A stretch of DNA of 64,000 nucleotides, from the sequence record OL615013; one strand, written 5' to 3'. Below the pieces are notes generated by a model that did not search any database, had not been told where the DNA came from, and was given only the letters and a program-made list of their open reading frames with translations. This document shows, piece by piece, positions 2,215-51,380 of the stretch. The DNA is from Shigella phage ChubbyThor. Positions within the stretch are counted from its first letter, which is position 1. Each line of letters opens with the position of its first letter. The translations under genes and the position numbers were made by a program.

Positions 2215-5139
2215 TCAATTTGACATCTGTTTCCAGTCTGAGGAGGTTAAGCCATGTGATTTCCACCAGGAACTCGCACCTGCACTCCAGACTTCCTGTC
2301 CAATAAAACGGGGGGTTACTGTAGCCACAGGCGTAGGACCAGAGACGACAACATACCCATATTTTGCTGGGCCAGTAGCATTGTTCAGTATCGTGTCTTT
2401 GGTAATTCCAGTCGCACCATTAAACCATTCTAGGTCTGTTCCGCTCGCCCCACTAATAAACTCAGGTGAAAACTTAGTGAAACTACAGGCTGCATTTACA
2501 CGTGCGCCGTTGTATGCATTATATCCACTAGCCTGGGTATTAGTCCAACGGCCACCGATCACACTGCCGCCACTACAGCTCAGGAACCAAGCTGCGTATC
2601 TTGCGAACCCTTCCACGTTCACATTAATCAGTTCAAAACCGGAAGCACCATTACACTGAATACCATCGTTGTTTGGGACACCACTCGCGATTTGTGGGTT
2701 AGCAGCATATCCAGTTAAGTTAGCGCCATTAATGTAAATACCAGTACTTGTGTTAGTGCTGAAGAAGATACCGACACCAGAACAGTTCTGAACGCTGAGG
2801 TTGCTAATACGGATACCACGAGCATAATCGAAACTTAAAGCTCGCTCTGCCGCTGAAACAGACCGATAACCAAATCCAATATCACGCAGACGTATATTGC
2901 TCATAGTGATATTGGATGGGTTCATACCCGGTGTCACAACTTCAAAACCTTCAAAGGTGATTCCGTTACCACAGTTGGTGGCTACAACATTATCCACAAC
3001 AATGTCGGCAACGTAGCGTTTGAAACCCATAGCCCCTTGAGCGCAGTCGCGCAACACCAGGTTGGACATTGCGCAGTTACGAGTACCGCCTGCCACACTT
3101 GCAGATAAGTAGATCCCAAGGTCGCGCGTGTTTTCTACATAAAGACCATTCACCCAGCAGTTTTTGGTAGTCGCAAACATCAGACCTGAGTCGGGGGCAT
3201 TCACGAGCTTACAGTTGGTGATAGAGCATCGATTCCCACCGAACGTTAAGATGTCGGCTACAGCATACAATGTGTTGCTTGCTTGGTTTCCGTCTATATA
3301 CAAATCTATTAAATGGGTATCCTGTGCATCAAAGTTCTCGACAAGATAATATGCTTTGGTCGCATCATTACAAACATTATCTGCGAATTTCAACCAGCCG
3401 CCTGCACCCTTAACAATAGTTTTAGAACCAATATGCAGATGCGTGAACACCCAAGGGTCTCCATTTTTGTTTTTGGGTGTGATGCCAATTACGCAATGTC
3501 CGGAAACACTATCCGCATAATCCAATGCTGCCTGTAATGTTTCCTGATCTGTCATTGCGCCGAACATGAAAGCGCGAACATCAATATAGTCTTCAAATTG
3601 AATTTCAAGTTGATTACCGTCCAGGCGGTCAATTAATACCACACCGTCGGCAACTTTACCTGTGTTGGGAACAACTGAATATTTGTTGTAAATACCAGAA
3701 AGAGTTTTGCTGGCCACAATACGCCCGAGCACGGTCTGGTTCGAGTTTAGCGAGTTTCGGTCTCCTAATTCCACAGCAACGCCGCCAATAGACCCAACCC
3801 CCACATTAGACTCTAATAATTCTTGGAAAACGACCAAGCTTTCAGAAGTCGGCAAGAGCAAAGAAACAACAACATTCCCTGGTGCATATGTCAGAGTGCT
3901 CCCACTCACAGATACAACAGAAGAACCTGTCGGGATACCAGAAGGTAAGCTCCAAATCTTTTGCGCCACCACATCATAGATAACAGTCTTTCCGTCCAAT
4001 TTGGTGACAGTATCTGATGACAGAATAACCTGAGAATTTGGAACGTTCATAGAACGCGCCACTTCGTTTGGTGTACGGTCGATCTGGTTGTACAGGGTTG
4101 GGTCGCCATTAATGACGACAACAACTTCATCACCAGCTTCGAGTTCGTCGGCCAGCGTGATGATCTTCGTAACGGAGTCATAAGTGAAGCCCAGACCTTT
4201 TTGCTGGCGGGATCCATCGATAAAGATCTCAGAAACATCTTCGGCATCCACGTCCAACTCGATCTCGGTTTCACCACCCGCAGCTGATCCACTATTGTAG
4301 ATCCAAGTGATAACCGTGCCGCCGCCGGAACCACCGGAGCCATTGCCCAACTGGATCGGGACGTATTGGATGACCTGCAGCTCGGAACCTGATGGGATTG
4401 ATGGACTGAAGTCCACATTGTAACCGTTCAGGGAATACTTTGATTCCAGCAGGCGTTTGCCGTCAACATACACGTCAACGATAGAAGGTTGTGTAGTCAG
4501 CGTTACCTGAGCAGTGTCTGCCGAAACGGTTTCCGTGAAGATGGTACGACTGTAAACGCGCCCCTGACCAAGGCCGACACCAGCAGTAACAATCCAACCA
4601 CGCGCGTCTCCAGACCAGGTAAAGGTCGCAGATACGCTGTCGGTGGAGAGCGTCATAGGCTCTACAGAGCCGTACATTGGGCGACCATTTGGGTCAATGG
4701 TCAGGGGATACAGGGAGAACTTTCCATACAAGTCACAGACTGTAACAGAATCACCCACACGCGTAGGGGAAGGGAACACCACCGTAGAGACGCCTGTGGA
4801 GTTGTCTACCAGATAGCCTCGCCCTTCAGTGAGCGTTGCCGTAGAGGCATGCGGAAGGGCTTCCCAGCGGATACCACCGCCACCCAGCGGCAACCATCCA
4901 CCATTTTCGTAGAAGCCCTCAAATTCGTCGGAGTCGGCATTGTAGCGAACAGAAGACGGGAGACCTGCGTCAGCATTACCCTCAGGTAAAGTCAGGACAG
5001 CATCTGGTCCATGCTCAATCGTACCCGTGTTGAGGATACCAGCCAAAGTAGACTGCTCTTCAGCCACCAGACCGAGAGGGAAAACAGGCTGTGTTGGTTT
5101 ATTAGCCATTTCAAATACCCCTAAATGTGTTCGTTTCAT
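2215..5139 (-). CDS. tailspike / tail fibre protein with N-terminal anchor module, Gly-rich linker and beta-helix domain
   Basis: 974-aa ORF; GSGGSGGG linker; internal segment (TKLDGKTVIYDVVAQKIWSLPSGIP...) homologous to N-terminus of ORF 1..2133; likely true start is the second in-frame ATG at 5109 (SD AGGGG 8 nt upstream, late-promoter-like box at 5141-5153). Confidence 0.55.
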   Translation of the reverse strand: MKRTHLGVFEMANKPTQPVFPLGLVAEEQSTLAGILNTGTIEHGPDAVLTLPEGNADAGLPSSVRYNADSDEFEGFYENGGWLPLGGGGIRWEALPHASTATLTEGRGYLVDNSTGVSTVVFPSPTRVGDSVTVCDLYGKFSLYPLTIDPNGRPMYGSVEPMTLSTDSVSATFTWSGDARGWIVTAGVGLGQGRVYSRTIFTETVSADTAQVTLTTQPSIVDVYVDGKRLLESKYSLNGYNVDFSPSIPSGSELQVIQYVPIQLGNGSGGSGGGTVITWIYNSGSAAGGETEIELDVDAEDVSEIFIDGSRQQKGLGFTYDSVTKIITLADELEAGDEVVVVINGDPTLYNQIDRTPNEVARSMNVPNSQVILSSDTVTKLDGKTVIYDVVAQKIWSLPSGIPTGSSVVSVSGSTLTYAPGNVVVSLLLPTSESLVVFQELLESNVGVGSIGGVAVELGDRNSLNSNQTVLGRIVASKTLSGIYNKYSVVPNTGKVADGVVLIDRLDGNQLEIQFEDYIDVRAFMFGAMTDQETLQAALDYADSVSGHCVIGITPKNKNGDPWVFTHLHIGSKTIVKGAGGWLKFADNVCNDATKAYYLVENFDAQDTHLIDLYIDGNQASNTLYAVADILTFGGNRCSITNCKLVNAPDSGLMFATTKNCWVNGLYVENTRDLGIYLSASVAGGTRNCAMSNLVLRDCAQGAMGFKRYVADIVVDNVVATNCGNGITFEGFEVVTPGMNPSNITMSNIRLRDIGFGYRSVSAAERALSFDYARGIRISNLSVQNCSGVGIFFSTNTSTGIYINGANLTGYAANPQIASGVPNNDGIQCNGASGFELINVNVEGFARYAAWFLSCSGGSVIGGRWTNTQASGYNAYNGARVNAACSFTKFSPEFISGASGTDLEWFNGATGITKDTILNNATGPAKYGYVVVSGPTPVATVTPRFIGQEVWSAGASSWWKSHGLTSSDWKQMSN

Positions 5140-5153
5140 CTAGGGGTATTTAG
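5113..5153 (-). promoter_or_regulatory. late-promoter-like box CTAAATACCCC with SD-sequestering inverted repeat upstream of tailspike gene
   Basis: Minus-strand CTAAATACCCCTA = plus 5141-5153; 11-bp inverted repeat plus 5113-5123 / 5141-5151; 3' arm contains AGGGG SD for ATG 5109. Confidence 0.4.
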
Positions 5154-7230: not shown

Positions 7231-8992
7231 AACGCACCTCCGGCTCCACAGTTACAGCACCGATGCGAAGCACCTGGTTTTGTGTGGCCTGAATGTTCTG
7301 GTCAAGACCGTCTGGAGACACGATGATAGTCACTCCCTCGGTGTTGTAGTTGGATACTATGATGCGCTGGAGTTCAACAACGCCATTCACATAATCAACC
7401 GTTCCAACAGCTTGTACCAGATATTCCTTGGTCGTGTCTGCTGTACTCACCTTGTACATATTCAGGACACCACTGACATCGCGCATGTAGTAAGTGAAGT
7501 CGACCTCGGCCGGAAGCGGCTTAAACCCACTGATACGCACAGAACCAGATGCAATCGAGCGCCCATAATCGAACGTGAAGCTGTCTAGTACCCCATAGTC
7601 TGGCTTGAAGTGGCGCTTGTACTTCACGGAAGCGATGTTTGACGCTATCGATCTGTCCATGTCGGTGATGGCCGACTGCAACTGCTCTTTATCGAACAGT
7701 TCGTCGAATCCTTCCAGGTTCCCCAAGCCCCAGTTGACAACACCGTTCTTTACGACTGTCTTCAACTGCTCTTCGGTGTAGGCCGTGGAAGTCGGATCCC
7801 AGAACACGCGGGTGGTGACATCAACATAAGTCAGTTCAGCGTCGACAATCTTGGGTGTGATCGTACCCACATTGTACTTGTCCAAAGTCGCCACGATATC
7901 TGCCTTCTCAGCGTCGGACAGCGTCTCACCAACAGAAGGTACTACAGCAATGTAAACGTATCCAGAGTCGGGCGGAGATAGCGTGTCTCCACCATATGCT
8001 TTGGCGCGGGAGACGTTGGAGAACAGGCGCTCGGTCAACACAGCATAATCGACTTCGGCTACCGCCGCACCCTCAGCCTGATAAGCCAGCGGAGCAAGGC
8101 GCTTGATGTCTTCAATGCTCTCTGGGTCTGTACCGCCAGAAGAACGTTCTGACACCAGTTCAACATCTACAAGGTTGAAGCCCCCGATGGAAGACGCAGA
8201 GGACAAGGCAGTGATGTCATTGCCGTCTGCACCAGAGGTCTCCAGATACTGAAGGTACACGACGTTCCCGTCTTCTACTCGCTTGCAGATATAACCGTCG
8301 CCGAATTCAAACGTGTACATCCCGTCCAACCCCAGCTCAACGAAGTAGAGTTGTGCATACTGGCTCAAATCGAACGGGCTGACATATCGTGAGAAGGTAG
8401 ACCGCACGTCGGAGGTCTCAGATTCCTGCACCTGCACCACCATGTGGTTGATGTCCACGGAAGAAGACGGGATCACATAGGTAGAGATCGCGCTGCCTTC
8501 CACGTCATAGGACTTGTACAGCCAGTTGCCCTGCACGAGTTTGATGTTCTCGAACTTGTAAGAGCCGTCTACAAGAGAGGCGCTCACAGGTTGGTCAACC
8601 GTGAAGTTGTAGGATTTGCCATCCTTCGCTCCAATGAACATCGCCCGGCGGTCCATTACAATCGTATCTGGAGCCGTGCTGGCGTCATATGGAGTGACTG
8701 TGACGTTTGCGTACAGGAACGCCGCCTGGTAGTTGTGAGGGGTGTAAGACAAGAACCCCGCCGCCAGACCAACATTAGAACGCTGTTGAGCAGAGTGAAG
8801 ATGGCTTTCGCCATTCAGCATGTTCTGCATGAACCCGATAGAGTTGGCATCCGAGGCCAAGATACGCACGATTGCACTGAGACCAGAACCTTCAAAGTCA
8901 TAATCCTTGAAAGTTGGATCAGCTTTCATGCGCTTCTTGATAAGATACTCGAAAGCCCTGACATCGAGTGAAGGAACTGTTTGTGTGGCCAT
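7211..8992 (-). CDS. baseplate wedge protein (Baseplate J / T4 gp6-like)
   Basis: ORF track 7211..9007 (598 aa); most plausible start is ATG at 8992 preceded by GGAGA SD; size and position upstream of tail fibre genes; late-promoter-like box upstream. Confidence 0.4.
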   Translation of the reverse strand: MATQTVPSLDVRAFEYLIKKRMKADPTFKDYDFEGSGLSAIVRILASDANSIGFMQNMLNGESHLHSAQQRSNVGLAAGFLSYTPHNYQAAFLYANVTVTPYDASTAPDTIVMDRRAMFIGAKDGKSYNFTVDQPVSASLVDGSYKFENIKLVQGNWLYKSYDVEGSAISTYVIPSSSVDINHMVVQVQESETSDVRSTFSRYVSPFDLSQYAQLYFVELGLDGMYTFEFGDGYICKRVEDGNVVYLQYLETSGADGNDITALSSASSIGGFNLVDVELVSERSSGGTDPESIEDIKRLAPLAYQAEGAAVAEVDYAVLTERLFSNVSRAKAYGGDTLSPPDSGYVYIAVVPSVGETLSDAEKADIVATLDKYNVGTITPKIVDAELTYVDVTTRVFWDPTSTAYTEEQLKTVVKNGVVNWGLGNLEGFDELFDKEQLQSAITDMDRSIASNIASVKYKRHFKPDYGVLDSFTFDYGRSIASGSVRISGFKPLPAEVDFTYYMRDVSGVLNMYKVSTADTTKEYLVQAVGTVDYVNGVVELQRIIVSNYNTEGVTIIVSPDGLDQNIQATQNQVLRIGAVTVEPEVRYVQRSQ

Positions 8993-8995
8993 GTT

Positions 8996-9039
8996 TATCT
9001 CCATCACCTGAACTTGAATATGGTGTTGGAGATATTTAG
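8996..9039 (-). promoter_or_regulatory. late-promoter-like box CTAAATAtCtcc with SD-sequestering inverted repeat upstream of baseplate gene
   Basis: Minus-strand CTAAATA = plus 9033-9039; 7-bp inverted repeat plus 8996-9002 / 9028-9034; 3' arm is the GGAGATA SD of ATG 8992. Confidence 0.4.
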
Positions 9040-9341
9040 TGGGATGGGATTGAAACTTCCTCGCGCGTTATTTTATTATACTATCACTCGCTTCACTGCG
9101 TTCCGCTCGGATAACACCGCCTTGACAGGCAGTCCCATTCCACAGCCATGGAGGCTGCTTTTCGTTGTTCGTTAACACTCACAACTCAAAGGGCACAGCG
9201 ATACGATACAGTCTCTGAGTGGTGTAGAAAAGTAGTTTTTGCCTATTAATAAACCGCGCTCCTATTCGTTGGCCTTTAATTCAATAACACCTTCACCAAT
9301 ATAATAGTGCGGTCAATTAACCATATATTAAGGAACCTCTC

Positions 9342-9914
9342 ATGCACATCAACACTGCTATCACGAAACACATCATTCCTTTGTTAGAGAAATATGAAGG
9401 GAAGAAATCAAAGGATATTTCGTTTGAAGATATATCCGCCGAAGTGAAGCGCTTGACACGTAAAGAAGTCAATTTCCGCCGTGTCCCCCCATCTGCAGTA
9501 GATCGGGCAAAGTCAGATTTGAACACGGCTTCCACTTTCTCCTTTAATATCGATGCCACGGCGACATTGGTATCCGAATTAACGCAGTCGTCACAAGCCC
9601 GTCGCGATCGCTTCCGCCATTTATGTGTGGCCAACGACTATCCTAGCACCCGTGTCGGCATCAAGCTTGAAGCAATCCGCTCCGAGGTGTGCTTCACAGT
9701 GAACTACATCCTGGAGCCTGAAACCAGCAACATTTATTTCGCAGCCATCATCGGCTTCTATGGTACATCCATTAATGGTTGGGCTGAGCGCGTTGAATTA
9801 AAAGAGACTCTGAACAAACACAGCATCCCGTCCACCCATTATATGTCGCTGGCCGCCGCTCGCGAATATGTGTATCTGCTCGAGCGTGATGTGAAGTTAA
9901 AAGTGGTAAAATAA
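9342..9914 (+). CDS. hypothetical protein
   Basis: 190-aa ORF starting with ATG, first plus-strand gene after divergent intergenic region 9008-9341. Confidence 0.5.
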   Translation: MHINTAITKHIIPLLEKYEGKKSKDISFEDISAEVKRLTRKEVNFRRVPPSAVDRAKSDLNTASTFSFNIDATATLVSELTQSSQARRDRFRHLCVANDYPSTRVGIKLEAIRSEVCFTVNYILEPETSNIYFAAIIGFYGTSINGWAERVELKETLNKHSIPSTHYMSLAAAREYVYLLERDVKLKVVK

Positions 9915-9971
9915 CGCTTTATTCAATAAAGAATTGCAGTAAAGTTAGTTGCATGGAAGGGAGGGAACACT

Positions 9972-10118
9972 ATGTTTTACATGATGTTACTCCTCATCCT
10001 CCTGATCGGGATTACCTTTACTCTCCTGGGTCTACCCGATCAGTCCGGTAAACAGTCGCCCACTTCGGCGCATCCGGTTTTGAGTGAAGGTTCGTCCGCA
10101 CTGCTGTGGGCAGTGTAG
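9972..10118 (+). CDS. small hydrophobic peptide (48 aa)
   Basis: ATG at 9972 preceded by GGAGGGAA SD at correct spacing; N-terminal hydrophobic helix MFYMMLLLILLIGITFTLLGL; below ORF-track length cut-off. Confidence 0.3.
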   Translation: MFYMMLLLILLIGITFTLLGLPDQSGKQSPTSAHPVLSEGSSALLWAV

Positions 10119-10119
10119 C

Positions 10120-12170
10120 TCAAAGAGGAGAGGACTTTTCAAATTAGCTGGTCTGCGGTAAAGTATTAAACACGAGGGAAACAGCGCATTGAGTTAGGCA
10201 TCTAAAGCCGACCTCACTAATCCCAGTCTCAGGGGCATGCGTGAATAGAGGCGTAATATCCACCTCGCTGGTGTCAGTGGACGCACTTGACCGTCGGAGA
10301 ACGAAACTCCCTGTTGTAGCGTGATTAGCTCAGAATCAGAGAGCACCCCGTTGGCAAGTCGACACCAACATATAAGGGGAGGTCGGGGGCGCTAATCTCC
10401 ATCACGCCGACAACATTATGAGTCTTCATAGAGGGTTCATAATGTTGCGTCAAAGGGCAACACAAAGGTTCCTGTTGGTTGAATTAACTTGATTCATAGT
10501 TCCTGCTGATCTTCCCGGATTCGAAGGAGCACCAACAGGCGAGGCCGGATGCGTAAGTTCCGGCAAATCGATGGCGAGGTGGTGCATTGGTGACACGGGG
10601 TAGCGCCCAGAAGTGTGGTTCGATTCCACACCCTCGCCAACAAATTAAAGGTTTTGTCAATAACGGGTTGCAGAGTATAGTTAACCCACTGAACGAAAAG
10701 CTGTTTGGGCACTAGACAAACACTTCGATGTGAACCCAGGACATGGCGTCTTGTGCTCAAACAGGTTTTCGTTCTCGTTGCTTGCGGCTTTGCGGGTTTT
10801 AAGAAACAGACCACAAAGATAAATGCAAATGATAACGCTTATCTGGCAGTAGCTTAACAGCTAAAACACCAGTGAGGTCTTCCGACTCCTCATAACAAAA
10901 TTCGGCGCACTAAAAATAGGCGGGAGGGTGTGATTAATAAGCTCCCGCCGACATCTGAGAGGGCACTTGATCGAGGTCGGTATCCGCTATACGGGATGCT
11001 GTAAAATGAATCCACGGAGTGTCCTCCCAGATGTGTCTCACAGCGCATCAGTTTGCAGTTATGCAAGCTTCAATAAGTTAAAACGCGCCTCAGGCGTTAT
11101 GGGATAAAGCCTTAAACAGTGGAATCCCCAGGGCTGGCAATCCCTGTTAAAGAAGTAGCCGTGTGGGGGTCAGCCCCCACAACGCAAAGTAGAGTCCTCT
11201 GGACGTTGAACTTTAACCCAAGGGTTGATTCACATGGTGAACGTTCCCGGCGGCGATAGTACAAGATGAGGGGTCATTGAAGTTCAGAGAACTCTACTTT
11301 GCGGCAGGTACTGCAAAACAGTGATCATCCTGACAAGCGTGATCACTCTTCGACAAAGCATCGCATCGTGGCTATCAACCACATCCTCGCTCTAGTGATG
11401 AGTGGTGTTATGTTCTGTCGGCCAGCCTCGTTTGGTCTGAACGTTAGAGGACAAGTGCTGAAGTGTGACGAAGACACTGAAGTGCGGGTTGTTTGGTGAA
11501 TCCTGCTAAGCGCAAGGGTTGAGTGGCAAAGAAACACCTGAGGGTAAGTCAACGCCATTATTCGCCATGATAATGGCATCGGGAGGCACCCGACGCTAAA
11601 CCGTTTGGCCTGGCGAAAGCAGGCAAGTATCTGGGGTCGATCACCTTGTCCTCTCCCAGGTGCGGGTTGTAGCATGGCTGCAACTCTGATGGCTCTGGGC
11701 ATCCGAATATCAGTTGTGGATGACTAGTGAAAAGAACGTTCAGAGCCATCAGAGTTGTGACCAACCCGATCTTGCAAGCCCGTATCCCGATCTGGTTAAG
11801 ACTTGCAAGTGGAAAGCCCTGGAAAAATAAACGCCTGTTGTGAGGCTACGGTGCAAGCCAATGACCAGCAGAAGCGCGTTGCCGTGAGGCGCACAAAGAG
11901 GCCTGCATGAACTGATCATGCACAAACGGGATAAAGGGTTGACAGTCCTTGGTTGGTTACACAACAGATTAAGGGGCGATAGTTTAAGGGATAGCTGTCC
12001 GGACAGCGAATCCTCATAGAGAACGGCTGGGAGGCCAAACCCAGCAGGTGAGGTGAAAATCCTCAAACCCCGCCAAACATTGTTGGACTGCCAGCAAGCT
12101 CCGGTCTACGGCAGGCGTGATGGGATCGCGGAATTCAAATACCGCCTTGGGAGCACCTAAATAAACCAGT
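10120..12170 (+). ncRNA. ORF-free, hairpin-dense region: candidate large structured non-coding RNA(s)
   Basis: No ORF with plausible composition or RBS on either strand over about 2 kb; many stable stems (e.g. GGCGGGAG/CTCCCGCC near 10920-10950, GTGGGGG/CCCCCAC near 11163-11183, 12-bp long-range pair GCAAAGTAGAGT/ACTCTACTTTGC); strand and boundaries undetermined. Confidence 0.3.
11680..11756. repeat. 17-bp perfect inverted repeat with 43-nt loop
   Basis: caactctgatggctctg (11680-11696) is the exact reverse complement of cagagccatcagagttg (11740-11756). Confidence 0.85.
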
Positions 12171-13570: not shown

Positions 13571-13694
13571 GCCCCCAGCTTAATGTCTTCTTATCACCCC
13601 AAATATGTAATCCTTCGTCGTAGTTTGTTCAATGATACAAAGGGGTTTAAAATTTAACCGTTAAAACCCCTATCATTGATTTGAGGATACACCA

Positions 13695-14348
13695 ATGCGT
13701 AATGTTTCTATCTGGGAAAATACTGAAGAATGGGAATTGCAGTCCACCCCAACTATAATCCGTATGTTCCAATACAAAGGCAACAAGCGTACTCTGAACG
13801 AGTTCTTGTCGCCGAATTATATCCATCGCGGCTCCCAGCTCGCTCCGCGTGATCTCAACCAGCCTGGCGAATGCACACCCTTTGATCTCGGCGTGAAGGG
13901 GCAGGTTGTCCTTATGGGTTACTCTAGTATTACCGCCGCCGAAGAGGGCAACGGTCAACCGTTCAAAGTATTCCATACACGCGAACAGGCAATCCATTGG
14001 CTGGTCAAAAACTTCTTCTATTTCTATGGCGATGAAAGCGCAACCCGCCGTTGTCGTAAAGCCGTTTCTATGGACTTCGACGCAGAGAATCGGAAGTACC
14101 AGGCCATGGCTCGCGAGTATGAAAAGAATCTCGTCAAGCCTGTCACTGTGGTTGACAACAAATACGTCGCTGAAGCCCCGCGTCATACAGTGAATATCGT
14201 TCCGGCCTGTGAAACGAAAGCGCCGACACCGCCTACTCCTCCGGTCAGTCGTGTTCTGAATGATCAGGGCGCTCCGGTAAAACAAAAGGCCAAGAAATCG
14301 TCATTTGTGGATAACATGATGAAGTTCCTGCGGTTGTTCGGGAAATAA
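13695..14348 (+). CDS. hypothetical protein
   Basis: 217-aa ORF, ATG start with GAGGAT SD upstream. Confidence 0.5.
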   Translation: MRNVSIWENTEEWELQSTPTIIRMFQYKGNKRTLNEFLSPNYIHRGSQLAPRDLNQPGECTPFDLGVKGQVVLMGYSSITAAEEGNGQPFKVFHTREQAIHWLVKNFFYFYGDESATRRCRKAVSMDFDAENRKYQAMAREYEKNLVKPVTVVDNKYVAEAPRHTVNIVPACETKAPTPPTPPVSRVLNDQGAPVKQKAKKSSFVDNMMKFLRLFGK

Positions 14349-14405
14349 TAGAAGGGGGGGTGTCTCTCTGCAGTAAATAATAGACACCCCTTATGGAGAA
14401 TTACC

Positions 14406-14915
14406 ATGAAAGCATTTTCTGATTTTGTTAACAACCGCCTCCAAGAAATAGACCACCCTCTCATGAAGGGTAAGACACCGCTCACCACACAGGAAATGGT
14501 GAAAACAATCAATGATTACTCTGGCATCCAGTTCAAACATGCGTCCAGCAAACAAGGCGGTTTACAACGACTAGACCACCAAATCGAATTAGGATACAGA
14601 ACAACAGTAGGTGGTAAAACTGTTTCTGTAAACACGTCATTCCGCCCTATCGATCAGGCGACTATAAGAAAGTTGGATCTAGACAAGAATATCACTAGTG
14701 GTATGGATAACACTCACTATGAAAATTCTGAGATCATATTCGAAGTAGGCGGTGATGGTTACTACAAGACAATGAAAGGCAAGAACGACGGAAATACCAA
14801 ATCCATTAATGAACTTAAGAACGAATTAAAAACGGCAGGCAGCGCCCTGAAATCTAGTAAAAACTCGGAAGACCTGGTCGAAAAATTGAAGTCTGCTGGA
14901 TACCAGTCCTTCTAG
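14406..14915 (+). CDS. hypothetical protein (Lys/Asn-rich, lower GC than neighbours)
   Basis: 169-aa ORF, GGAGAA SD 7 nt upstream of ATG; visibly AT-richer codon composition. Confidence 0.5.
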   Translation: MKAFSDFVNNRLQEIDHPLMKGKTPLTTQEMVKTINDYSGIQFKHASSKQGGLQRLDHQIELGYRTTVGGKTVSVNTSFRPIDQATIRKLDLDKNITSGMDNTHYENSEIIFEVGGDGYYKTMKGKNDGNTKSINELKNELKTAGSALKSSKNSEDLVEKLKSAGYQSF

Positions 14916-14950
14916 ATTCAGGAAATAATCTGAGATTCTCCTTTTCTATA

Positions 14951-14990
14951 CTCCTGTAGATACGCTATGATAAGCCAATGTCTACAGGAG
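14951..14990 (+). promoter_or_regulatory. SD-sequestering hairpin in 5' UTR of the PLP-enzyme gene
   Basis: 10-bp inverted repeat CTCCTGTAGA (14951-14960) / TCTACAGGAG (14981-14990); 3' arm contains the AGGAG SD, ATG at 14998. Confidence 0.45.
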
Positions 14991-14997
14991 AAATAGA

Positions 14998-16254
14998 ATG
15001 AACAAATTCGCTGCACAACCCCTCGCTCCATATATTCCGTTTCACACGTTAGGGAAAGGTCCATACAAAACGATTTTTGATGTCCTCTCTCTTCATCGTG
15101 AACATATTCACTGGGAAGACTACCTCTACAAACACACTCCGTGTGAACTCGTCCCCAACCCCGAAACTAACCAGCAGGTCTGGTTCAAGCGTGAAGATTA
15201 CTTCGCGCCGCTATCTTGTTATATGAATGGCAAGCAGGGCATCAACGGCAGCAAACTCCGTCAGGCCATCTGGCTCATGGTTGAGCACCTGAAGGCCGGA
15301 GGCTCCCCTGACATCATCCACGGCACTGTCGTTGGTAGTCCGCAGTCCCCTATGGCGACGGCAGTCTCTCGGCACTTCGGCGGCAAGACAACCACTGTAC
15401 TCGGCGCGACCAAACCCACCACTTGTATGAACCATGATATGGTGGAAATGAGTGCCTGGTTCGGTAGTGAGTTCAACTTCGTCGGCTCCGGCTACAACAG
15501 CACCATCCAACCTCGCTGTAAGAAGCTCATCGAGCAGGTGAATCCAAAGGCGTACTACCTGGAATATGGTATTACCCTGGACCACACAGTGCATTCCCCC
15601 GAGCGCATCGCAGGATTCCATATGCTGGGCGGCGAGCAGGTTGCTAACATCCCTGACCATATCACCGATCTGATCATCCCTGCTGGATCATGCAACTCAT
15701 GCACAAGCATCCTGACCGGGCTGGCGATGCACCCTAAGCCTAATCTGAAGCGTGTTTATCTGATTGGGATTGGACCAAACCGCCTGGACTTCATTGAGAG
15801 CCGCCTGCGCATCATCGGCAAACAGGCCAATCTGCCTCACATTGTCGACTTCACCCGTCGTTATCACGACAACCCAGACTATGTGCACGGCAAGAAGGAG
15901 CTTCAGCATGCCTCTAAGAGCGTTTCGCTGGCTGGCCTCCTAAGTGGTATCAGGCAGAAGGGAGAGCCAGAGGTCGTGCTTCCTCGCTTTGAGGTACACC
16001 ATTGGGATCTTCACACCACCAATTGGGTTCGTTACAATGACCTGATGGATTATCAGTGGGGTGATATCGAACTGCATCCTCGCTATGAAGGCAAGGTCAT
16101 GACCTGGATCCAGCAGAACAAGCCCGAGTTGCTCAATGAGAACACTCTGTTCTGGATCGTGGGAAGTAAACCATACATCGAGCCGATGAAGGCTGCATGC
16201 CCTGAGCTGGCTATCCCAGATGAAGTGAACGTCAACACCTTCACTCCTTCCTGA
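14998..16254 (+). CDS. PLP-dependent enzyme, fold type II (ACC deaminase / D-cysteine desulfhydrase / Trp-synthase-beta-like)
   Basis: 418-aa ORF; segment FKREDY...NGSKLRQAIWLM resembles the KREDx...GGNKxRKLE PLP-lysine region of the ACC-deaminase family. Confidence 0.5.
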   Translation: MNKFAAQPLAPYIPFHTLGKGPYKTIFDVLSLHREHIHWEDYLYKHTPCELVPNPETNQQVWFKREDYFAPLSCYMNGKQGINGSKLRQAIWLMVEHLKAGGSPDIIHGTVVGSPQSPMATAVSRHFGGKTTTVLGATKPTTCMNHDMVEMSAWFGSEFNFVGSGYNSTIQPRCKKLIEQVNPKAYYLEYGITLDHTVHSPERIAGFHMLGGEQVANIPDHITDLIIPAGSCNSCTSILTGLAMHPKPNLKRVYLIGIGPNRLDFIESRLRIIGKQANLPHIVDFTRRYHDNPDYVHGKKELQHASKSVSLAGLLSGIRQKGEPEVVLPRFEVHHWDLHTTNWVRYNDLMDYQWGDIELHPRYEGKVMTWIQQNKPELLNENTLFWIVGSKPYIEPMKAACPELAIPDEVNVNTFTPS

Positions 16255-16260
16255 TCCCTT

Positions 16261-16291
16261 CTAAATACCCCATACAACCCGTGTGGGGTAT
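16261..16291 (+). promoter_or_regulatory. late-promoter-like box CTAAATACCCC whose tail forms a hairpin with the SD of a 31-codon uORF
   Basis: CTAAATACCCC at 16261-16271; 8-bp stem ATACCCCA (16265-16272) / TGGGGTAT (16284-16291); small ORF ATG at 16294. Confidence 0.4.
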
Positions 16292-16360
16292 CTATGAAAC
16301 CTTTCTTGAATATTTCCGTGATATCGTCCTGTACAAACCCGGCCTGGCAGTGCGGGAAGC

Positions 16361-16371
16361 CTAAATACCCC
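16361..16371 (+). promoter_or_regulatory. late-promoter-like box CTAAATACCCC upstream of acidic-protein gene
   Basis: Exact second copy of CTAAATACCCCATA, 29 nt upstream of ATG 16400; GAGGA SD between. Confidence 0.45.
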
Positions 16372-16399
16372 ATATGGCTAACCCACTGAGGAACCCAAC

Positions 16400-16858
16400 A
16401 TGCCAACCTCCAAATTGTTTGAATCAGAATACACCAATGATATCCCCGTATGGACTGGTGTTCAAGACGGCATCACGATTGAGCTGTTTGATCGTGAAGA
16501 GACGGGCGCGGAAGAGATCTATGCAGGCGTTGAAGGCACTGATGTTGTTCGCGCCGCTGTAGCCCTTGCCACCTTCCTGGAAGATGCGCCGATTGATGGT
16601 GTGCCGTTCGAGGCGCACGTAGATCCCGAGGATCCAACGTCTATCATCATTACAGTGAATGGGGTGCCATACACTTCATACAGCATTGAGACGGACGAAG
16701 AGGGCAGCGGAGCGCTGTATATTGCTACTGACCTGCAGCTGGAAGACGATGAGATGGATTATCTGATTCAGAATGGGGTACTGCCGCCGTTCACAGATGA
16801 AGACCTGGACACGGAACTGGCCGCCGTCGGTGACGATGACGACTTCTGGGAAGAATAA
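16400..16858 (+). CDS. strongly acidic protein (about 40 Asp/Glu in 152 aa); candidate DNA-mimic / host-takeover protein
   Basis: ORF with GAGGA SD; composition by direct count; poly-Asp C-terminus GDDDDFWEE. Confidence 0.55.
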   Translation: MPTSKLFESEYTNDIPVWTGVQDGITIELFDREETGAEEIYAGVEGTDVVRAAVALATFLEDAPIDGVPFEAHVDPEDPTSIIITVNGVPYTSYSIETDEEGSGALYIATDLQLEDDEMDYLIQNGVLPPFTDEDLDTELAAVGDDDDFWEE

Positions 16859-16861
16859 GAA

Positions 16862-16890
16862 AAGGGGCGTTAAGCCCCTTTCTTTATTTC
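16862..16890 (+). terminator. bidirectional intrinsic terminator between convergent genes
   Basis: Hairpin AAGGGGC-GTTAA-GCCCCTT followed by TTTCTTTATTTC, A-rich on 5' side. Confidence 0.55.
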
Positions 16891-26280: not shown

Positions 26281-26312
26281 TATAAATATCCTCGCCTATA
26301 AAGTGAGGATAT
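26281..26312 (+). promoter_or_regulatory. T4-type late-promoter box TATAAATA whose tail forms an SD-sequestering hairpin
   Basis: TATAAATA at 26281-26288; 8-bp stem ATATCCTC (26286-26293) / GAGGATAT (26305-26312); ATG of small ORF at 26317. Confidence 0.4.
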
Positions 26313-26316
26313 TATC

Positions 26317-26484
26317 ATGTTACAAGATCTGTTGGTCTACGCACTTCCGGGTGTGGTTGTTGGATTCATCGCAGGTGCTCTGGTCTTCCGCAAACACGCG
26401 CAAGACGGTGAAGTGATTGTTCAGAAGGGTAAAGACATCCTGGAACAAATCGAAGCCAAACTGGATGAGCTGAAGAAAAAGTAA
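26317..26484 (+). CDS. small protein (55 aa) with N-terminal hydrophobic helix
   Basis: ATG 26317 with GAGGA SD; below ORF-track cut-off. Confidence 0.3.
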   Translation: MLQDLLVYALPGVVVGFIAGALVFRKHAQDGEVIVQKGKDILEQIEAKLDELKKK

Positions 26485-50728: not shown

Positions 50729-51339
50729 GGCAATAGAAGTCCATCATCCCGCTCCGTTGGGGCGGGTTTAATCTCCTTCCGCATCTGTTCCTTCAGCACC
50801 CTGACGCGTTCGGCATGTCGGCGGTCTTGCATCTCCATATCCCGTTTCTTCTTCGACTTCAGCTCAAACTGTTTGCGGACATCCGGATCTTCACCTGGAA
50901 CAAGATGCTCTTCAGTCCAGATAATGAACTTCCAGTTCTTCTTGGCACACAGTTCACGGGTAGCCTCCCACTTGGCAGAGTTGACCAACCAGGTTCGCAT
51001 CGCATTGTTGAATGTCGACTCCTTCATGTTCGGAGTCTTCTTCGGCTGCTTGATCTGGTCTTTGGGCTTGATCTCAATGAGGGTGACCTGCAGTTCCTCT
51101 TGCCCTTCACGGCGCGTCCAGACCTTGAGGTCCATGAAGTAACGATGGGTGCGCCCGTCGACTGGGGAAATGTAAGGGATTACAGTCTCCTCGCTCGACC
51201 ACTTCACTATCGCGGAGTTCATATCACAGAACTTGAAAGCCACCAACTCCAGCGAAGAGCGGAAGATGATGTTGTTCACATTCCCCTGATACTTCTTGGG
51301 ATTAACCGGGGTGTATTTCCCCTGAAGATAGTTGCTCAT
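50725..51339 (-). CDS. PD-(D/E)xK-fold protein, possibly head-completion (gp4-like) protein
   Basis: 204 aa; FMDLKVW ... LIEIKP D...ExK arrangement; divergent from structural operon. Confidence 0.35.
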   Translation of the reverse strand: MSNYLQGKYTPVNPKKYQGNVNNIIFRSSLELVAFKFCDMNSAIVKWSSEETVIPYISPVDGRTHRYFMDLKVWTRREGQEELQVTLIEIKPKDQIKQPKKTPNMKESTFNNAMRTWLVNSAKWEATRELCAKKNWKFIIWTEEHLVPGEDPDVRKQFELKSKKKRDMEMQDRRHAERVRVLKEQMRKEIKPAPTERDDGLLLP

Positions 51340-51348
51340 AATTTAGTC

Positions 51349-51380
51349 CTAAATAGCCATAACACTCTATCTATTTAAGG
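51349..51380 (+). promoter_or_regulatory. late-promoter-like box CTAAATAG with downstream inverted copy overlapping the SD
   Basis: CTAAATAG 51349-51356; inverted copy CTATTTAAGG 51371-51380; ATG 51390. Confidence 0.35.

Follow-up and report, generated by a model that had tools for sequence, protein, structure and literature searches.

In the 64,000-nucleotide stretch of Shigella phage ChubbyThor DNA analyzed here (sequence record OL615013; the whole stretch is called the window below), a gene for an acidic protein is preceded by two copies of the box CTAAATACCCCATA and by a 31-codon open reading frame (ORF) that ends within the ribosome-binding site of this gene. The initial annotation of the window had interpreted this leader as a regulatory upstream ORF (uORF) coupled to translation of the acidic protein, with a duplicated box that gives rise to two alternative late transcripts. 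We found that the sequence between the two boxes is what a single deletion of 393 nt has left of another gene, and that the first box forms part of a hairpin of a kind that recurs in front of other genes of these phages. We propose that the leader is the scar of the lost gene, together with an ancestral hairpin that would mask a ribosome-binding site in the manner of gene e of phage T4, and we assign to this explanation as a whole a probability of about 85%. The observation made in the initial annotation was thus confirmed and its interpretation is partly supported, namely with respect to the late promoters and the hairpin and not with respect to a regulatory uORF and its coupling.

The scar of a deleted gene

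The features of the leader and of the gene that follows it, with the evidence in brackets, are:

16261-16274, plus strand: box copy 1, putative late promoter P1 of the deleted ART-PolyVal gene, core CTAAATA at 16261-16267 (sequence match)
16265-16291, plus strand: hairpin with 5' arm ATACCCCATAC (in P1), loop AACCC and 3' arm GTGTGGGGTAT, which contains GGGGT (folding)
16294-16389, plus strand: 31-codon "uORF", the frameshifted stump of the ART-PolyVal gene with its ancestral ATG (ORF, alignment)
16281-16364, plus strand: 27-amino acid ORF with GTG start, the frame that still carries ancestral residues (..TFLEYFR-DIVLYKPGLAVREA, then stop) (comparison with intact genes)
16361-16374, plus strand: box copy 2, putative late promoter P2 of the acidic-protein gene (sequence match, annotation of relatives)
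16388-16392, plus strand: GAGGA ribosome-binding site of the acidic-protein gene (invariant among ten deletion alleles)
16400-16858, plus strand: acidic-protein gene, 152 amino acids (ORF; orthologue of LIMEstone1 ORF174)

A megablast search gave for the region an identity of 97.9% with Shigella phage Ag3 and of 96.1% with Salmonella phage SKML-39; these two phages are classified in the family Ackermannviridae, subfamily Aglimvirinae, genus Agtrevirus. Judged by this match the window comes from an Agtrevirus, a ViI-like phage about 98% identical to Ag3. ViI-like phages are relatives of T4.

The two boxes are ~490 bp apart in Shigella phage Gloob and in Yersinia phage CAU_YEP3, where they enclose an annotated gene of 152-154 codons, which begins at the ATG directly after the box 1 hairpin and ends with GCC-TAA-ATACCCC, its stop codon being inside box 2. 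The same arrangement of box, gene and box is present in LIMEstone1, Vi01, SPTD1 and the Klebsiella Taipeivirus Trex_ER12, and intact copies of the gene lie at L003 2920-3378, L004 665-1123 and L005 643-1092. A tblastn search with the intact gene gave 226 phage records (225 of them with at least 80% coverage; length 149-154 amino acids) and no match in Ag3 or MK-13; a protein-seeded search of IMG/VR for the gene yielded only 2 loci. The intact-gene protein matches Pfam ART-PolyVal (PF18760) with 46.6 bits, the cut-off being 31.2, over residues 19-144 of Gloob gp182, which assigns the relatives of the deleted gene by sequence to this family of ADP-ribosyltransferases (ART). In virions of LIMEstone1 the orthologue, ORF173, had been detected by mass spectrometry with one unique peptide.

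When the window was aligned with the intact genes, a single gap of 393 nt was found, with matching sequence on both flanks. Of the ART gene the window keeps 10 codons at the beginning and 13 at the end, with the junction at CGTGA (16317-16321) and the ancestral stop TAA (16362-16364) inside box 2. The relatives have N-terminally ..(F/Y)(L/Y)RE.. (CGTGA(A/G)) and C-terminally ..VRE-IVLYKPGL.. (CGTGAG), and the deletion probably arose between two short CGTGA direct repeats, in the codons for ..FRE.. and ..VRE... The junction is the same in ten deletion alleles, those of the window, Ag3, SKML-39, MK-13, P46FS4, PC3, ZQ1, CECAV_050, LHE287 and YX22, which indicates that the deletion was one event. 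Four more phages (SW16-7, SP-9-14, PH4 and A221) give the same single-piece match as the deletion alleles, at the level of the search match, so that the window has the deletion in common with at least 13 related phages. Because the Ag3 clade, with at least these 13 phages, has lost the transferase gene, the gene is dispensable in nature.

An exact search for the 14-mer CTAAATACCCCATA found it at 16261-16274 and at 16361-16374, 100 bp apart as claimed in the initial annotation, and nowhere else in the 64 kb with up to 2 mismatches (chance expectation 0.14 matches; two matches were reached in 1 of 100 shuffles). That the box is duplicated was not borne out: there are two separate promoter sites, which the deletion brought to within 100 bp of each other. 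Two identical 14-mers at such a short distance could also be the product of a local tandem duplication that copied the promoter to raise the expression of the acidic protein, an origin that has next to no probability and is refuted by synteny and by the alignment with the intact genes: the sequence between the boxes aligns with the two ends of a gene located at the same place in the relatives, in every intact genome examined the boxes are ~490 bp apart, and nothing beyond the 14-mer is repeated.

After the deletion the stump decayed. P46FS4 retains the in-frame fusion of 23 codons, MKTFLEYFREIVLYKPGLAVREA, which is closed by the ancestral TAA. The AAAA run that follows the ATG has lost one A in the window, Ag3, SKML-39 and MK-13, which results in the 31-codon out-of-frame ORF ending with TGA; the other deletion alleles have varied 1-nt insertions or deletions, a 10-nt deletion or a premature TAG. 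Among the ten alleles the stump ORF comprises 8, 23, 28 or 31 codons and ends with TAG, TAA or TGA, and a search for conservation of the uORF revealed two frames plus a premature stop and three stop positions. The mean pairwise divergence of the stump interior is 0.114 (26 of 65 columns variable, 12 gapped), that of box 1 with the hairpin 0.051 and that of the region from box 2 to the ATG of the acidic-protein gene 0.008 (2 of 43 columns variable). The stump interior thus diverges ~14 times faster than the box 2 region and evolves like neutral DNA. Homology to both gene ends in place, frameshifts, insertions and deletions, and a divergence above that of the flanks are all found here, as in a gene remnant.

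Box 1 has changed to CTGAATA or CTGAACA in three of the ten deletion alleles (PC3, ZQ1 and YX22), as compared with CTAAATA in all 17 distinct sequences with an intact gene (Fisher P = 0.04, uncorrected for shared ancestry); these mutations may trace back to only one or two events.

The geometry described in the initial annotation was found as described: the ORF 16294-16389 has 31 codons, and its stop codon TGA (16387-16389) overlaps the Shine-Dalgarno sequence GAGGA (16388-16392), which is located 7 nt before the ATG at 16400. Does this reflect a design, in which tandem late promoters and a regulatory uORF ending in GAGGA couple or modulate the translation of the acidic protein? In the window the box of P1 still conforms to the consensus, the intact gene of relatives, the protein of which was found in LIMEstone1 virions, uses the same initiation region, and seven of the ten stumps end at the same TGA. 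The recurrence of this TGA needs no selection, however, because any single-base deletion shifts the ATG into the frame that ends there. Length, frame and stop vary among the sister phages, two alleles ending with the ancestral TAA, which lies 35-36 nt upstream of the ATG; the interior has accumulated substitutions, insertions and deletions as described above; box 1 is mutated in three alleles; and ~225 records manage without any uORF. A regulatory uORF with coupling is therefore not supported, and we consider such a design very improbable. From the sequences the "uORF" and the coupling are most probably accidents of a frameshift in a deletion scar, and the loss of the gene an ordinary one. Transcription of the scar, and its translation to a junk peptide directly in front of a functional gene, may still take place.

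Putative late promoters and the hairpin over the ribosome-binding site

Both box sites are marked as putative late promoters in the GenBank record of LIMEstone1, and the equivalent sites in the record of SPTD1 are annotated "Kuttervirus late gene promoter". Of the six CTAAATA sites in the window five precede a gene start, among them those 27-40 nt upstream of the starts of the gp6 baseplate wedge, tailspike and gp48 tail-tube cap genes, and a box of the CTAAATA type also precedes gp14, endolysin and other genes in Ag3 and Vi01. Homologues of gp55, gp33 and gp45 are encoded in Ag3 by orf122, orf076 and orf165 (these genes lie outside the 64-kb window and were therefore taken from the 98%-identical relative) and are also encoded by Vi01. 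By these comparisons both boxes would be T4-type late promoters preceding virion genes. The consensus published for "Viunalikevirus" reportedly reads CTAAATAcCcc. In the paper on phage CBA120 (2011) the late promoter was still called unidentified.

The position of box 2 given in the initial annotation, 29 nt before the ATG at 16400, is approximate; the distance to the ATG is 25 nt from the end of the box and 32 nt from the CTAAATA core. An extra C is present in box 2 (CTAAATACCCCC) of three deletion alleles, ZQ1, LHE287 and YX22 (L012, L014 and L015), from which it appears that the C-run after the late-promoter core tolerates a change in length.

T4 late transcripts begin ~6 nt past the box. 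With this spacing transcription from P1 is predicted to start near 16272-16274 and transcription from P2 near 16372-16374. The P1 RNA would carry the stump, and the P2 RNA would have a short leader of ~27 nt, in which no significant structure was found (16373-16420: -3.8 kcal/mol, z +0.9). In the window two apparently intact late promoters now feed the acidic-protein gene. Of the suggestion that two late transcripts with different translational outputs are made, the two transcripts are plausible, both boxes being late-promoter motifs, and the uORF with coupling as an evolved design is not; in the sequence data there is no sign of the arrangement having been taken over for regulation.

The acidic protein (152 amino acids, with 40 aspartate plus glutamate and 3 lysine plus arginine residues, pI about 4.05) belongs to PHROG 3852, a family of unknown function. 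It has no match in Pfam, a sequence search of the PDB gave only a chance match (E = 0.39), and the single-sequence AlphaFold model, with a pLDDT of 47, was unusable. Its charge is within the range of phage DNA-mimic anti-restriction proteins. The LIMEstone1 orthologue, ORF174, had been found in virions by mass spectrometry, with one unique peptide.

The hairpin between box 1 and its Shine-Dalgarno sequence, for which 8 bp had been claimed, proved to be stronger than that. It has 11 pairs (10 Watson-Crick pairs and one G-U) between 16265-16275 and 16281-16291 with the loop 16276-16280, and an energy of -18.5 to -19 kcal/mol (z = -5.0), which was equalled in 0 of 200 shuffles. The ribosome-binding site GGGGT (16285-16289) is in the 3' arm, 4 nt before the ATG at 16294, and the AUG follows the stem after 2 nt. 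The box (16261-16274) overlaps the 5' arm (16265-16275), and the RNA folded from 16273 onward is no more structured than shuffles. Agtrevirus, Limestonevirus, Kuttervirus and Taipeivirus have the same stems, with six variants of the five-base loop; the hairpin is ancestral and older than the deletion. A search for the hairpin as a DNA pattern found 16 loci, in which the stems are present by construction and hence uninformative on stem variation.

Late promoters within a hairpin that masks the ribosome-binding site are present in the T4 genes e (lysozyme), soc, 49 and I-TevI (Uzan and Miller, 2010; PMC3014915). The ART site shows the same features in its sequence: the hairpin covers the Shine-Dalgarno sequence, and the late promoter, with its start as predicted above, is in the 5' strand.

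The history that we propose is as follows. The ancestor would have had a gene for an enzyme dependent on pyridoxal phosphate (PLP), then the ART-PolyVal gene and then the acidic-protein gene, both virion genes with their own T4-type late promoter. RNA reading through from the PLP gene would hold both arms of the hairpin, by which the ART gene's ribosome-binding site would be masked, and RNA begun at P1 would start within the 5' arm and leave the ribosome-binding site free. In the Ag3 lineage one in-frame deletion of 393 bp then took out the body of the transferase gene, leaving the promoter, the hairpin, the ribosome-binding site, the ATG and a stump of 23 codons, with the two promoters now 100 bp apart. 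The stump decayed thereafter, the loss of one A making the ATG read to the TGA in the GAGGA of the next gene.

Box 2 has the same sequence as box 1 and, once transcribed, therefore offers the ribosome-binding-site arm of the stump a second possible partner (16279-16294 with 16362-16377). In the predicted P1 transcript a long-range helix of 13 bp (16279-16291 with 16365-16377), which encloses the stump ORF, is present in both the minimum-energy and the centroid fold, the z-score of the whole transcript being only -0.5. By this model the pairing would further lower the translation of the stump, which also speaks against a regulatory uORF.

The neighboring features of the locus are:

14998-16254, plus strand: upstream gene, predicted PLP-dependent enzyme, homologue of gp226 of ViI (ORF, Pfam PALP, PHROG 3650)
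16861-16881, unstranded: bidirectional intrinsic terminator closing the rightward unit (terminator scan; annotated in Ag3 too)

The upstream gene matches PHROG 3650, and Pfam PALP with 32 bits, below the cut-off of 35; it is named orf00226 in Ag3, and Vi01_182 bears the note orf00226. In ViI the PLP enzyme that takes part in the hypermodification of thymidine (the 5-NeOmdU pathway) is gp226 (PMC5889632). The upstream gene would be the likely source of read-through transcripts. A scan of the plus strand from ~13700 to 16860 revealed no terminator-like site, and only a weak sigma-70-like site was present, at 13647-13676. Rfam gave only two sub-threshold matches, both at the terminator, and none at the leader. 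Two ORFs that overlap the leader, 16374-16562 on the plus strand and 16083-16406 on the minus strand, were rejected as chance ORFs; they are not called by the annotators of ten related records.

Recurrence of the promoter-in-hairpin module

In the window three more genes have a late-promoter box paired with their own initiation region (the hairpin in front of the ART stump being module 1):

5107-5153, minus strand: module 2, 16-bp hairpin with CTAAATA (5153-5147) in its 5' arm and the 3' arm ..TAGGGGTATTTG before the predicted tailspike ATG 5109-5107
8990-9039, minus strand: module 3, box CTAAATATCTCCA paired with TGGAGATA before the ATG 8992-8990 of the gp6 baseplate wedge gene (folding)
26282-26319, plus strand: module 4, ATAAATATCCTCGC paired with GTGAGGATATT before the ATG 26317 of a gene for 55 amino acids (PHROG 3879)

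The tailspike module (-22.6 kcal/mol, z -7.5) is kept in Vi01_173c with a different loop. The longest tailspike ORF starts with an ATG at 5139 (minus strand) inside the hairpin, and the PHROG alignment begins at residue 11; the position of the ribosome-binding site and the PHROG alignment point to the ATG at 5109 as the real start. The gp6 module has -16.1 kcal/mol (z -4.3), and its Kuttervirus orthologue keeps the pairing via a C-to-T change that results in a G-U pair. In the module of the 55-amino acid gene the duplex has -12.5 and the minimum free energy fold -14.0 kcal/mol. In the remainder of Ag3 like modules precede another tailspike gene, the gp14 neck protein gene, orf174 and orf097. 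The latter is the endolysin gene (Pfam Muramidase, 198 bits, plus PG_binding_1), located among early nrd/phoH genes; in its module (Ag3 orf097, L016 26442-27273; Vi01_086c) TTAAATA is part of a hairpin (AAATACCTTCGCA/TGCGGAGGTATTT, then TCTT) in which the ribosome-binding site GGAGG is covered.

For a genome-wide comparison the duplex between a 13-nt box segment and the initiation region of its own gene was calculated, with genes at the same offsets as controls. A duplex of -9 kcal/mol or stronger was found in 6 of 21 box-bearing genes of the window plus Ag3 versus 20 of 185 controls (Fisher P = 0.03) and in 8 of 23 box-bearing genes of Vi01 (150 kb) versus 12 of 180 controls (P = 0.0004); both sets pooled gave P = 7e-5. 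When boxes and initiation regions were permuted, the count had P = 0.0008 and the mean was matched in 0 of 5000 shuffles for the window plus Ag3; for Vi01 count and mean were each matched in 0 of 5000 shuffles. The hairpin signal is that of a distinct subset of the box-bearing genes, and the module is present at about one third of the late promoters of Ag3 and Vi01, that of the endolysin gene included.

The arms covary between the sites, as in ATACCCC/GGGGTAT, ATATCTCC/GGAGATA, ATATCCTC/GAGGATAT and ACCTTCGCA/TGCGGAGGT. Orthologous hairpins of Ag3 and Vi01 differ in their loops and in stem changes compatible with pairing: in the orf174 hairpin CAT..ATG stands against CAA..TTG, and in the endolysin hairpin ACCTTCGCA against ACCTCTGCA, which both pair with TGCGGAGGT via G-U. 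Pairing has thus been kept through change across the module sites.

The main rival to masking is that the hairpin is chiefly a terminator or 3'-end stabilizer of the PLP-enzyme unit, inside which the late promoter restarts transcription, the masking being incidental. The modules of Ag3 orf174 and of the endolysin gene carry TATTTTCT tails, the Taipeivirus orthologues of the ART-site hairpin end in GGGGTATTT(T)ATG, and the AAATA/TATTT bases of the stem resemble the A- and T-tracts of bidirectional terminators. The tail of the ART-site hairpin in the window is CTATGAAA, however, with 2 T in 8 nt (4 in 8 when counted from GGGG), and was not flagged by the terminator scan; six of the eight strong modules have no T-tract, and some of the loops are 9-17 nt long. 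In all eight modules the 3' arm covers a ribosome-binding site 4-9 nt before the start codon, a placement that termination alone does not need. We therefore regard a terminator as unlikely. Either way, by masking or by termination, the late gene would be insulated from upstream transcription.

Much less probable still, and slightly less probable than the uORF design, is a role of the inverted repeat as DNA, for example through a cruciform, or through a folded non-template strand, that would help the gp55 polymerase to open the late promoter. The 5' arm always takes in part of the TAAATA box, which would be in line with such a role, but the repeat is missing from two thirds of the late boxes (those of the gp23-cluster genes and P2 among them), and the 3' arm keeps to the ribosome-binding site and the start codon, with loops of 4-17 nt, which is more in keeping with a role of RNA at the initiation region than with the geometry of a promoter.

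Several points weigh against the explanation that we favor. The microhomology at CGTGA was deduced only from the relatives, because no intact ancestor with the exact N-terminus ..YFRE was found, and the read-through from the PLP gene rests only on there being no predicted terminator. No RNA 5'-end data or transcript maps for Ackermannviridae, and nothing of use on the box motif, were found in the literature searched, and the start positions were taken from the T4 spacing of ~6 nt past the box. Since the stems do not vary at the ART site, this site alone gives no evidence of covariation, and the 5' arm may be conserved there simply as a promoter. With respect to the modules, the box genes of the window plus Ag3 are, over the whole distribution, not more structured than the controls (Mann-Whitney P = 0.37), ~7-11% of the control sites also reach -9 kcal/mol, the gene starts were taken genome-wide from our own crude caller of ORFs and ribosome-binding sites, and two of the eight strong modules have T-rich tails and are possibly terminators instead.

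We would only tentatively go one step further and regard the modules as a genome-wide insulation system of the Ackermannviridae, by which each such gene is expressed only from its own late start; on balance we lean against so general a role. If it existed, it would span about one third of the late genes (tailspikes, neck, baseplate, endolysin and the packaged transferase); the late box with its C-rich extension would double as a mask of its own ribosome-binding site and sometimes as the stem of a terminator; and part of the "cCcc" extension would serve RNA pairing rather than recognition by the polymerase.

Three other arrangements were noted in the course of this work. Upstream of Ag3 orf104 (L016 ~30851, minus strand), and also of Vi01_092c, the order is the reverse, with CTAAATA in the loop of a terminator-like hairpin (CCCCTAAATACAGGGGG, then ATTTCTTTTT). 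At 51349-51378 of the window a palindrome, CCTAAATAG...CTATTTAAGG, supplies a TAAATA box on each strand, one facing gp48 (ATG 51390, plus strand) and the other a gene for 204 amino acids starting at 51339 on the minus strand; these resemble a back-to-back pair of late promoters that have one inverted repeat in common. In the ~2.3 kb upstream of the gp6 late promoter (9040-11340) the only long ORF in our crude gene map is 9342-9914 on the plus strand, and the counterpart in Vi01 is an unannotated gap of ~4 kb (134830-138943).

Significance and comparison with known systems

A deletion scar between promoters of a known type is ordinary. Its value is corrective, since what seemed to be an elaborate leader, with tandem promoters, a uORF and a stop codon in the next ribosome-binding site, is what a deletion left behind; in annotation and in the search for motifs, scars of this kind are to be reckoned with in any phage operon whose genes each have their own promoter. 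The recurring promoter-in-hairpin module of the Ackermannviridae would be, on the evidence of sequence statistics and conservation, a new instance of a mechanism known from T4. ViI-like phages are used in biocontrol against Salmonella, E. coli O157, Shigella and Dickeya, and the trick of T4 gene e appears to be widespread in them, their endolysin gene included, from which testable predictions on the timing of late-gene expression follow.

The boxes resemble the T4 late promoter TATAAATA, which is read by gp55, gp33 and gp45: the core in the window matches 7 of 8 positions, a -35 element is likewise lacking, and boxes of this type lie 25-45 nt before the starts of virion genes. Unlike the T4 promoter, the ViI-like box begins with C and has a C-rich 3' extension (CTAAATAcCcc).

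The scar has the properties of other phage gene remnants, in which likewise both gene ends are kept in place, the frame is broken, relatives differ by insertions and deletions, and divergence is raised. It differs from the usual remnants in that it retains a complete and probably active promoter (as predicted), a ribosome-binding site and an ATG.

With respect to the lost gene the comparison is with Alt, the ADP-ribosyltransferase that T4 packages and injects. The ART orthologues are likewise found in virions and have a predicted late promoter, but belong by sequence to the ART-PolyVal family, have ~150 rather than ~680 amino acids, and the gene is absent from at least 13 phages. In the CBA120 paper (2011) the phage family was said to have no homologues of Alt or ModA; ViI-like phages package the small ART-PolyVal protein.

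The closest counterpart of the hairpin is the scheme of T4 gene e. The ViI-like late promoter is likewise in the 5' strand and the Shine-Dalgarno sequence in the 3' strand, and the endolysin module of Ag3 and Vi01, located among early genes, is a close parallel to the lysozyme gene. The ViI-like modules differ from gene e in that they belong to Ackermannviridae and to a promoter of the form CTAAATAcCcc, in that the box itself and not just its flanks forms the arm, and in that they are present at roughly a third of the late promoters, including those of tailspike, neck and baseplate genes, and are known from sequence alone. At the site from which we started the gene under the hairpin no longer exists.

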